Virus record (IMG/VR): IMGVR_UViG_2698536484_000002 | Location: 1-10,383 of that record | Origin: a virus | Lineage: Duplodnaviria; Heunggongvirae; Uroviricota; Caudoviricetes | Reading direction: 5' to 3' (one strand) | DNA length: 10,383 bases | Shown here: one piece after another, positions 1 through 3,000 of the stretch | How positions within the stretch are numbered: position 1 is the stretch's first letter | How the letters are laid out: each line of letters opens with the position of its first letter | Position numbers: made by a program

Positions 1-3000
1 GCCAGCGTTGCGAGTGCTGTACTCATCCGTTTTATACCTCTGAATCAATATCAACCTGATGGTGAGCAATGGTTTCAACCATGTACCGGATGTGTTCTGC
101 CATGCGTTCCTGAAACTCAACATCGTCATCAAACGCACGGGTAATGGCTTTTTTGCTGGCCCCGTGGCGTTGCAAATGATCGATGCATAGCGATTCAAAC
201 AGGTGCTGGGGCAGGCCTTTTTCCATATCGTCTGCCAGTTCTGCCTCTTTCTCTTCACGGGCGATCTGCTGGTAGTGACGCGCCCAGCTCTGAGCCTCAA
301 GACGATCCTGAATGTAATAAGCGTTCATGGCTGAACTCCTGAAATAGCTGTGAAAATATCGCCCGCGAAATGCCGGGCTGATTAGGAAAACAGGAAAGGG
401 GGTTAGTGAATGCTTTTGCTTGATCTCAGTTTCAGCATTAATATCCATTTTTTATAAGCGTCGACGGCTTCACGAAACATCTTTTCATCGCCAATAAAAG
501 TGGCGATAGTGAATTTAGTCTGGATAGCCATAAGTGTTTGATCCATTTTTTGGGACTCCTGGCTGATTAAGTATGTCGATAAGGCGTTTCCATCCGTCAC
601 GTAATTTACGGGTGATTCGTTCAAGTAAAGATTCGGAAGGGCAGCCAGCAACAGGCCACCCTGCAATGGCATATTGCATGGTGTGCTCCTTATTTATACA
701 TAACGAAAAACGCCTCGAGTGAAGCGTTATTGGTATGCGGTAAAGCCGCGCTTAGGCGGCTGATGTTTCTTCTTTCAGGCTTTCGAGATATTTACGTGGG
801 TCGTCGTAACATTGGCATTCGCTGTACCAATCCACCCAGCGATCAGTAAGCCCCATCTCTGATAAATCTTCATCGGTAAGGCTCTCATCCCACATCTCAA
901 GGCCGTTAGCATTGCAGTAATCAGGCTTGATGTTGTTGTCATACTGAAAGGCGTCATAATCAGCCAGTGCGTCCATCAGACGAACACCCTCTTCAACACT
1001 TGCCACTTCTACAATGAACGGCTTCATAGGTACTTGCGGGATATGCCAGACACGTAATTTCATATATCCTCCGTCAAAAAAATTGCCCTCACACTGGAGG
1101 GCAAAGAAGATTTCCAATAATCAGAACAAGTCGGCTCCTGTTTAGTTACGAGCGACATTGCTCCGTGTATTCACTCGTTGGAATGAATACACAGTGCTTA
1201 TTCGTACTAATAAAATACCCAATTTTCTGTTTCTTGGTTGTGTCCAAAGTTATATTCAATATCTGGTGTTGATGTATCAATATTCTTCATACCATCAACA
1301 AGAGTTGATACAACAGCCAAATCTTGTTTGATTCTCATTAAATGGTATTTCTTCCGGCGCAATAAACTTTCAATGGCAAGTTTCTTCGTTGGGAATGCAA
1401 AAGATCTTTCTGCATTTTTTGCTACTTTCTTAATTGCATATCTATTTCTCCTTTGTTTCCATTCCTGTAACCACTGATTTGGTGCTGGTTTAAAATTAAC
1501 AATCCAATGCGCAGGAACCAACCATGCATAATGCTCTGTCTGATGAAAAGCTATATATTGAAGTGCGAATATTTTTATCCCATCTTCTTCAACTGTCGCC
1601 TGGAATCTCCAGAAAACAGGCATTCCATCATGTTCAGTTTCTGATTCAGGAAAAGGTACGCTCCATGATTTTGTCATATCTCACCTCAAATAAGTGGTTT
1701 GCTGCCTAATTTCATTTTCTGGCGACCAACACAAGTCACCTCGCCGTCAGTTGTTTTGATTTCCGGTAGCCTGCCGCGTAAATGGCTACGTTTGGAAGAC
1801 ATACACCAGTTTCTGGTTGCTTATGTCCAAACTCATTCGCGTACACAATGGCCGCTCGCTCCAGATTGCGTCTGTATTCTTTCTGTTGCCAGATCACGTC
1901 CTGTGCCATGAACTTAATTGGCTTAGCGTCTTCTATGCGCTCAGGCGTTTCGTGAGTACCTTTAGCCTGAATCTGCGCTCTGCTTAGAGTAGGGCGGTGT
2001 AATACTTCTGAACTTATTGCTTCTTCGCGGGCCAGTACGCCGTTAGCTAATGCCTTTGCCTTTAAACGCTCACGACGACGAGAACGTGAATTGCCTTTGA
2101 ACTGAGTTCTGCGTGTCATATAGACCTCCTGATGAACTTTGGTGGTGTGGTAGGTGGGAGACCCATTTCGACCTGTTTCGGCCTACTTCAATTCGGCAAT
2201 AGTCCCGCAGGCCTCGCCGCTTTACGTGCGACATATGCCCGTCCATGAACCCTTCACCACACCCCAAAGTTCACTTTGGTTATTGCGCTTTGTCAGCGCC
2301 GTAGATTCATATTCGAATCGTTGTATATTCACCGCCCTGGTGAGTAATGCGTCCTGCTGACGACGATAATAATGAACCAATAGTTCGGCATTATCAAGAA
2401 CTATTGGTACGAATTTTGGTGATTTATTAACTCTACGAAGTATGATTCTGATATATAAGGAAATTTATTTTTGAAAATGTGGCTGATGAAGGTTATGCGG
2501 CAGGGATCATAACTGCATGGTTTAGCGAGTTACATCAATAAATACAATTGGTTATGTTTTTTAGGTGGGCGAACGTGAGGCAAAGAAAACCCGGCGCTGA
2601 GGCCGGGCTAGATTTTAAAGTATTTATCTTTTAGAGATGTAGATGTAAAACTTTTCGCCTTTGAAAATTTTTTGTCATCAGAAGGGCTTATGAACTCATC
2701 TTTTTTGTAGGGAACCGCTAATGCTGCATCACGTCTGCGAGGCAGCTTGCTTACTTCCTCGCGCTTTTTCATGATCAGTTATCCTTTAATAACCTATACA
2801 GTTTTGTAGGGGTACATCCTGAGGATATTGTTAAGTTCGTAGCACGCCTTTTCCGCCCATCATCGTATAAACGAAAACCAGTAGTAGACGAATTTTCTGC
2901 GTCAAAAACTATAGACAGTATAGCGTCCCCAGACTTTTTTTGCCATTCGCATGTGCCGTTAGTTGGTTTCGTCATCTGTAGACGCCAGTCAAGAACGCCA

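Follow-up and report, generated by a model that had tools for sequence, protein, structure and literature searches.

The window analysed here is the whole stretch of 10,383 nucleotides (nt) held as IMG/VR record IMGVR_UViG_2698536484_000002, a phage of the class Caudoviricetes, and the element under study is an open reading frame (ORF) of 156 amino acids (aa) on its minus strand, immediately downstream of the antiterminator gene N. Its ATG lies at 1677-1675 and its stop codon TAA at 1209-1207, the start being located 58 nt beyond the stop of N, and a strong Shine-Dalgarno (SD) sequence, GAGGTGA (1687-1681), stands 3 nt ahead of the ATG. A preliminary description of this DNA, made from the sequence alone, had placed a gene of this length at 1207-1677 just downstream of N, and these coordinates proved exact. 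The gene had also been described as more AT-rich than its neighbours, in agreement with a GC content of 35.7% (26.8% at third codon positions) versus 49.2% (43.8%) in N and 46.8% (49.0%) in the Ea10-like gene that closes the locus. The encoded protein is 100% identical to L0079 of phage 933W (NP_049479) and to vb_24B_11c of phage Φ24B, with identical copies also found in BP-4795, Min27, Stx2 phage 86 and many Shiga-toxin (Stx) phages of types Stx1a/Stx2a, while gp45 of HK97 shows 99.4% identity. L0079, vb_24B_11c and gp45 are the same gene at the same position after N, none with an assigned function, and copies are annotated everywhere as "hypothetical protein". The ORF has been catalogued since 1999-2000 and its type of locus is well known, so that no new kind of system is at hand here.

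Cargo and backbone of the slot

Prophages with the same flanks that lack the ORF (LSU61, OkiPb01699, and DE3) were compared with the window by blastn and alignment. Only positions 1198-1674 differ between the ORF-bearing window and these prophages with other cargo. On one side, the shared backbone covers 1675-1801, comprising the 3' end of N, the 58-nt spacer, the ribosome binding site (RBS) and the ATG itself. On the other side it covers 1077-1197, comprising the hairpin and the terminator, which are 98-99% identical despite the different cargo. Spacer, RBS, and ATG are invariant across three backbones with unrelated cargo, bar one base between the SD sequence and the ATG. In the DE3 prophage, a lambda-type backbone derived from imm21 lambda, the same ATG opens the 28-aa acidic orf28, which is followed by ral and then by the same hairpin and terminator; ral in this slot was recovered by the Pfam Ral model at E = 1.6e-48, serving as a positive control. 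This presence/absence comparison across related prophages, proposed as a check in the preliminary description, found orf28 with ral, an 83-aa gene, or orf28 with a ral remnant and a 149-aa gene in place of the ORF. None of the alternative cargos (149-aa, 83-aa, and orf184) is related to the family of the ORF. As judged from these alignments, the ORF is shown to be a base-for-base replacement of lambda orf28 and ral between N and Ea10 in the pL operon, and the earlier statement that it sits where lambda carries ral is accurate to the base. Since they are common to prophages with quite different genes in the slot, the RBS, ATG, hairpin, and terminator belong, by the same comparison, to the backbone and are not attributes of the ORF.

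The structures downstream of the ORF had been described as a 9-bp hairpin without a U-tract followed by an intrinsic terminator. The hairpin is present and carries no U-tract, but it is longer than was stated: 14 pairs (two of them G-U) enclose the loop CAAC between 1194 and 1163, with a folding free energy of -20.4 kcal/mol, and the perfect 9-bp stem GTGTATTCA/TGAATACAC is its core. The terminator was found as described, with a stem of 8 pairs at 1104-1083 and a run of TTTTTTT at 1082-1076. The 152-nt region downstream of the ORF folds with z = -5.8 relative to shuffled sequences. No Rfam family was matched by the hairpin, the cIII thermoregulator being the sole Rfam match. Irrespective of the cargo ahead of it, the hairpin is about 99% conserved in LSU61, OkiPb01699, and DE3. 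Possible roles are cleavage by RNase III, stabilisation of the mRNA 3' end, or participation in a compound terminator.

The orf28 peptide, encoded just upstream of ral (L103, 1908-1975; L005, 3245-3328), is extremely acidic, with the 28-aa sequence MEEEFEEFE(D/E)HPQDVMEQYQDYPYDYDY, and its composition recalls DNA-mimic peptides.

Homologues, genomic contexts, and predicted fold

The full-length gene was found in 561 of the 5426 complete E. coli genomes (about 10%); among those that bear the backbone, it was 561 of 2237. Close homologues of the same length form 33 clusters at 55-99% identity, from E. coli, a Salmonella phage, Pectobacterium, Brenneria, Cronobacter, Rosenbergiella, and Serratia; a species-level genome survey gave 7 loci and a survey of viral contigs only identical copies. 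Length and frame are kept in homologues at 55-85% identity, and the N-terminus is conserved. Codon-level comparison of the ORF with a homologue of 85% identity gave a ratio of nonsynonymous to synonymous substitution (dN/dS) of 0.17, and a ratio of 0.135 was obtained within the Salmonella/Bas81 pair, dS being saturated in the remaining pairs. Because of the dN/dS of 0.17 and the induction of the gene together with the pL operon in Φ24B, described below, the ORF is shown to be a genuine, selected, and transcribed gene. In prophage JLK-2012, an Stx prophage of O55:H7 (L115, 2201-3872), the insertion sequence IS629 interrupts the ORF behind codon 138 and replaces the C-terminal motif NFGHNxETENW, which results in a natural C-terminal truncation. 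IS629 was also considered as a natural knockout in phage phi345 and rejected, as the element there sits in the kil/gam region; the interruption holds for JLK-2012 only.

At least five different alleles of the antiterminator were found directly upstream of the gene: the N of 933W/HK97, a P22-like allele (E. coli strain 81, with Erf alongside), another N-like pair (strain 2014C-3051), and those of two diverged metagenomic lambdoids whose ORF homologues share 71-74% protein identity. In Pectobacterium and Brenneria prophages, xis-int follows directly on the homologue. Among non-lambdoid alleles, the closest one (85% identity, GC 36%) opens a short operon that also encodes a ParB-like protein and a RusA-like resolvase, and so do those of Salmonella NX263 and E. 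coli Bas81. In most contexts the GC content of the homologue is below that of its surroundings. Neither a conserved partner gene nor an informative domain fusion was found across these contexts; two long hits considered as fusions (P0066 and P0080) were rejected as repetitive false positives. In 4 of the 9 annotated records of non-lambdoid phages, DNA methyltransferases lie no more than about 3.5 kb from the homologue, a weak association. The gene is shown to be autonomous single-gene cargo that is exchanged horizontally between phage types. On one diverged lambdoid contig (L102, 3768-4480), the homologue begins 2 nt past the stop of the N-like gene, which suggests translational coupling of the homologue to the antiterminator in that lineage.

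Profile and structure searches, likewise proposed in the preliminary description, led to no well-known family and to no solved structure. PHROG 1636, of unknown function, was matched end to end (E = 2.7e-112, residues 1-156 on positions 1-156 of the 156-position profile). Sequence and profile searches of Pfam, NCBIfam, and the PDB gave no match for the protein, nor did the defence models of PADLOC-DB v2, where a Cas1 hit at E = 0.018 was at chance level. A search of the searchable library for HK97 gp45, L0079, vb_24B_11c, their accessions, and phrog_1636 returned no characterisation. The earlier remark that the gene resembles nothing recognised is right as regards known functional families, but the gene is an exact copy of the long-catalogued hypothetical ORF of 933W and HK97.

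An exhaustive profile search of 1.84 billion representatives returned 87 proteins, about 70 of which are proteins of 125-160 aa that align to residues 19-140 at about 20% identity. These wider relatives derive from phages and prophages of Pseudomonas, Vibrio, Pantoea, and marine Pseudomonadales. Of the 78 relatives that were aligned, 77 also match PHROG 1636, and none carries a Pfam domain, a functional name, or a match in NCBIfam, PADLOC, or the PDB. An AlphaFold2 model built from a 20-sequence alignment was poor, with a predicted local distance difference test score (pLDDT) of 59.5, and was superseded by that from the 78-sequence alignment, with a pLDDT of 95.4 and a predicted template modelling score of 0.83. 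The latter contains strands at 19-30, 33-46, 50-55, and 83-86, short helices at 57-61 and 66-74, and a 33-residue helix at 98-130. It depicts a compact alpha/beta domain that consists of a long beta-hairpin sheet (19-55), a conserved basic segment (74-117), and the long helix (98-130). No solved structure matched this predicted fold. Only G33, T47, K87, and A101 are near-invariant across the 78 members at about 20% identity, and no conserved Asp, Glu, or His was found across the family as a catalytic candidate; at position 46, E predominates among the members, and the present ORF has Q. Basic residues are conserved at positions 24, 83, 84, 87, 98, 108, 109, and 117, and the isoelectric point (pI) has a family median of 8.96 and exceeds 8 in 92% of members. 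The motif "RxFAFxT..A" followed by a helix was pursued as a lead to a DNA-binding domain of the AP2 or lambda-Int-arm type, which was rejected by hhalign.

A Foldseek search of BFVD with the model gave 14 matches at E < 1e-3, all of them uncharacterised proteins of phages that infect Erwinia, Achromobacter, Delftia, Rhizobium, Sinorhizobium, Tenacibaculum, and Cellulophaga. These relatives (PHROGs 13631, 25384, and 28215) align over about 120-150 residues with E-values of 4e-7 to 6e-4 and a probability of 1.00, and a hidden Markov model match covers the core 19-140. They share only 12-25% identity with the ORF, come from non-lambdoid phages, are all of unknown function, and lack both the N-terminal WSVPFPES and the C-terminal NFGHNxETENW motifs of the enterobacterial subfamily. 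Several of them presumably belong to virulent N4-like phages. The family is shown to be phage-specific and without a structurally or functionally characterised relative. Functionally it is truly dark, with a confidently predicted fold that looks novel, in a hotspot known for immune-evasion genes.

Expression and candidate functions

In RNA-seq of Φ24B induced with norfloxacin, the identical gene vb_24B_11c rose 43-fold, a value that is a fold change with no absolute level in the lysogen (PMC4651098 Table S4). In the same table ssb rose 79-fold, gam 137-fold, bet 89-fold, and exo 98-fold, while the prophage-expressed genes of the cI operon barely changed (stk 1.8, res 1.2, 13c 0.65, and 12c 3.6). 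Since vb_24B_11c rises like ssb, gam, bet, and exo while stk, res, and 13c stay flat, the gene follows the pattern of the pL early operon and not that of genes expressed in the lysogen. The slot terminator (1076-1104) is read through after induction, because ssb, cIII, kil, and gam, which lie downstream of it, are induced 70-137-fold (PMC4651098 Table S4). Between pL and the ORF no sigma-70-like site was found on the minus strand by consensus scan, which weak or non-canonical promoters could escape, and the pL-like promoter at 2397-2369 is presumed to be the source of ORF transcription. On the opposite strand, a promoter-like site, TACACA-17-TAAAAT at 1188-1216, points into the 3' end of the ORF. 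It is probably a chance occurrence in AT-rich DNA, since the scan gave fewer sites than shuffled sequence.

As regards its setting, the ORF resembles lambda Ral closely: the slot, backbone spacer, RBS, ATG, hairpin, terminator, and pL-driven early expression are the same. The proteins themselves are different. Ral (PF11058) has 66 aa as against 156, shares no sequence or profile similarity with the ORF (the Pfam Ral model gave no hit to it at E<=1), and the predicted fold of the ORF is another one; no evidence linking the ORF to type I restriction-modification was found. Variable cargo between conserved anchors, as at the present locus, is characteristic of the Ral accessory region in lambdoid phages. 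The ORF is shown to be cargo of this region, where it fills the first accessory slot of the leftward early (pL) operon of a 933W-type lambdoid. This region ranked second of about 200 in enterobacterial phages in the work of Silas et al., in which Ral was scored as an inhibitor of type I restriction-modification, the Ral-region cargo orf184 was found to trigger the Gop-beta-cII abortive-infection system, and several accessory genes of counter-defence regions were conditionally lethal in wild strains (bioRxiv 10.1101/2023.04.06.535777; PMC12373910).

Our preference, tentative and held with rather less than even confidence, is that the ORF encodes an early, non-enzymatic binding protein that acts in counter-defence or host takeover. 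The ORF borrows the RBS and ATG of the backbone and is transcribed, presumably from pL, upon prophage induction or infection, so that its product would be among the first phage proteins made after N. The protein would then act alone, and non-enzymatically, in the first minutes of lytic growth, its conserved basic face binding a polyanion such as nucleic acid or an acidic host protein. Counter-defence or host takeover would be its most probable role, in line with the slot's other characterised cargos, and a benefit conferred on the lysogen is probably not involved. This proposal is drawn from the biology of the slot, the early timing, the presence of relatives in phages that we take to be virulent, and the weak association with methyltransferases (4 of 9 records).

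Several points weigh against this proposal. Because a single accessory region can hold cargos that do unrelated things, guilt by slot is a weak argument, and the ORF is outside the 200 accessory genes screened by Silas et al. (bioRxiv 10.1101/2023.04.06.535777; PMC12373910). The induction of vb_24B_11c has P = 0.273, as is the case for exo, bet, gam, and ssb, and the fold change rests mainly on the common behaviour of the operon (PMC4651098 Table S4). Neither homology nor experiment was found to tie the protein to any defence system or ligand, and the claim as to its fold rests on prediction. A basic charge is equally to be expected of transcription, replication, or recombination factors, and many contexts of the gene are plain early DNA-metabolism regions (RecT/YqaJ/Erf, ParB, and RusA). 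Furthermore, known anti-restriction proteins are acidic DNA mimics, or small like Ral, and the ORF protein is neither. A more far-reaching claim is possible but doubtful: that L0079/gp45 is the founding member, and one tractable by experiment, of a widespread phage-only fold (PHROGs 1636, 13631, 25384, and 28215) and a new early effector of counter-defence or host takeover, which would substitute functionally for Ral in about a quarter of the E. coli prophages with this backbone and whose target and mechanism would be unlike those of known anti-defence proteins.

The main rival to the counter-defence or takeover role is an accessory factor internal to the phage. Such a protein would bind DNA or RNA and adjust early events of the phage itself, whether transcription, replication, recombination, or the choice between lysis and lysogeny, and would have no part in anti-immunity. 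The conserved basic surface and the median pI of about 9 fit such a factor equally well. The gene recurs among RecT/YqaJ/CsrA, Erf, ParB-like and RusA, and xis-int, and in every lambdoid context it directly follows the N regulator. Moreover, other small early genes of lambdoids (cIII, kil, and exo-xis ORFs such as orf63 and ea22) are described as modulatory. On the other hand, most lambdoids of the same backbone do without the gene, as the E. coli counts given above illustrate, and it can be replaced by unrelated genes. Lambda strains deleted for orf28-ral are viable laboratory strains (PMC2327257), so that the slot holds nothing of the core programme. No DNA-binding fold was recognised either, as helix-turn-helix, AP2, and Int-arm candidates all failed. 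We consider an internal factor of this kind a real but not a likely explanation.

It is improbable that the main observable effect of the protein is to be sensed by abortive-infection systems of the host or of a prophage, its primary biochemical function being something else. Such a trigger or decoy has a precedent in orf184 of the same accessory region, which activates Gop-beta-cII, and in the conditional lethality of several accessory genes reported by Silas et al. However, orf184 is an acidic 107-aa protein unrelated to the ORF in sequence, and the explanation describes a consequence and not a function. Since 933W encodes both Stk and this gene, the latter should not be the trigger of the adjacent Stk, and by the same reasoning HK97 gp45 would not be the HK97 factor that triggers Stk-mediated exclusion.

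Slightly less probable again is a moron expressed from the prophage for the benefit of the lysogen, by superinfection exclusion or abortive infection of the SieB or Rex kind. In lambda and P22, the equivalent region holds SieB. The ORF shares with morons such as HK97 gp15 and with SieB-type exclusion genes a foreign composition, optional presence, and a downstream terminator; it is AT-rich like the neighbouring prophage-expressed module of stk and the RuvC-like gene (GC 35%), and it is abundant in the prophages of E. coli. In contrast to morons, no promoter-like site was found upstream of the ORF in the scan, its terminator, RBS, and ATG are those of the backbone, and it is induced with the lytic genes. 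Nor is the protein a membrane protein as SieB-type exclusion would require: no membrane segment was detected (maximum Kyte-Doolittle mean over 19 residues 0.56; grand average of hydropathicity -0.59), and there was no Pfam or PADLOC match. For the structural relatives in presumably virulent N4-like phages, a benefit to a lysogen would have no meaning. The 43-fold induction in Φ24B, against the flat values of stk, res, and 13c, largely refutes expression for the lysogen (PMC4651098 Table S4). The preliminary description had suggested a horizontally acquired moron. The acquisition part of this suggestion is sustained by the exchange of a foreign cassette among at least five antiterminator alleles and non-lambdoid phages, but the term moron, taken strictly, is not supported, and the expression from the prophage that the term implies is contradicted by its behaviour as a pL gene. 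Neither membership of a well-known family nor a lack of expression, either of which would have counted against the description, was found. Finally, a spurious or decaying ORF, to which the purely hypothetical annotation and the IS629 interruption in JLK-2012 might point, is refuted by purifying selection (dN/dS 0.17 and 0.135), by 87 cluster representatives across Proteobacteria-infecting phages, and by the confident fold prediction, the strong RBS, and transcription, and can be given almost no weight.

Whichever function applies, L0079/gp45 is carried by most 933W-type Shiga-toxin phages and by the model phage HK97 and counts among the earliest proteins to be made upon induction. Its slot is among the highest-scoring accessory-gene hotspots of enterobacterial phages, and the characterised cargos act on host immunity. 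A confident predicted structure without a solved relative, together with a near-identical copy in HK97, a BSL-1 phage, makes the protein a cheap and well-posed target in the search for a novel function among early phage proteins. If an early factor were to influence how successfully Stx phages infect or are induced, this would have consequences for the spread of these toxin phages. The locus is otherwise an example of ordinary lambdoid mosaicism, and over-reading is unwarranted.

Neighbouring features of the window

The features surrounding the ORF are listed in Table 1. The window corresponds to the early-left, immunity, and replication region of a lambdoid phage of the 933W (Stx) type, with 99.8% identity to phage 933W over bases 1077-5677.

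Table 1. Features of the window around the 156-aa ORF, in the direction of minus-strand transcription.
Feature	Position	Strand	Basis or remark
cI	4746-5453	minus	
DUF3024 gene	4344-4685	minus	matches PADLOC candidate PDC-S43, E=5e-42
RuvC-like gene	3815-4276	minus	low GC, ~35%
stk	2775-3821	minus	matches PD-T4-6 and mad6 kinase models (down to E=1e-47); GC ~35%
Small ORF	2608-2772	minus	
Terminator tM	2609-2588	minus	
pL-like promoter, TTGATA-17-CATTAT	2397-2369	minus	promoter consensus scan
nutL	about 2351-2285	minus	933W annotation, mapped by position relative to N
N antiterminator gene (H-19B/933W/HK97 type)	1736-2119	minus	Pfam N_peptide, E=2e-15
Backbone spacer from N to slot, including SD sequence (1687-1681)	1678-1735	minus	
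156-aa ORF (933W L0079 / Φ24B vb_24B_11c / HK97 gp45)	1207-1677	minus	PHROG 1636
Exchangeable cargo segment, codon 2 to 9 nt past stop	1198-1674		blastn and alignments against LSU61, OkiPb01699, and DE3 prophages
Backbone hairpin	1163-1194	minus	RNA fold
Intrinsic terminator upstream of Ea10-like gene	1076-1104	minus	annotated as putative terminator in HK97
Ea10/GP17-like gene closing the slot	752-1063	minus	PF17420, E=1e-55
cIII/kil, then gam	beyond Ea10-like gene	minus	

The Ea10/GP17-like segment at 761-1076 has no megablast match to 933W, its allele being different from that of 933W. Since 933W is matched at 98.6-99.8% identity on either side of it (1-760 and 1077-5677), the window reads as a 933W-like mosaic in which a second cassette swap, that of the Ea10-like gene, adjoins the first. 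A TTG start at 1117 would place the Ea10-like ORF (752-1117) over the terminator. The true start is likely the ATG at 1063, since the Pfam GP17 match leaves out the first 18 residues of the TTG-started ORF and a GGAGG ribosome binding site lies 5 nt upstream of this ATG. Further along, the Rfam lambda cIII thermoregulator (RF01804) was matched at 634-692 on the minus strand, with 88.5 bits and E = 1e-21.

The minus-strand genes between cI and tM (the DUF3024 gene at 4344-4685 and those at 2775-4276) resemble a prophage-expressed defence island. Within it the RuvC-like gene and stk are of low GC content (about 35%), like the 156-aa ORF.

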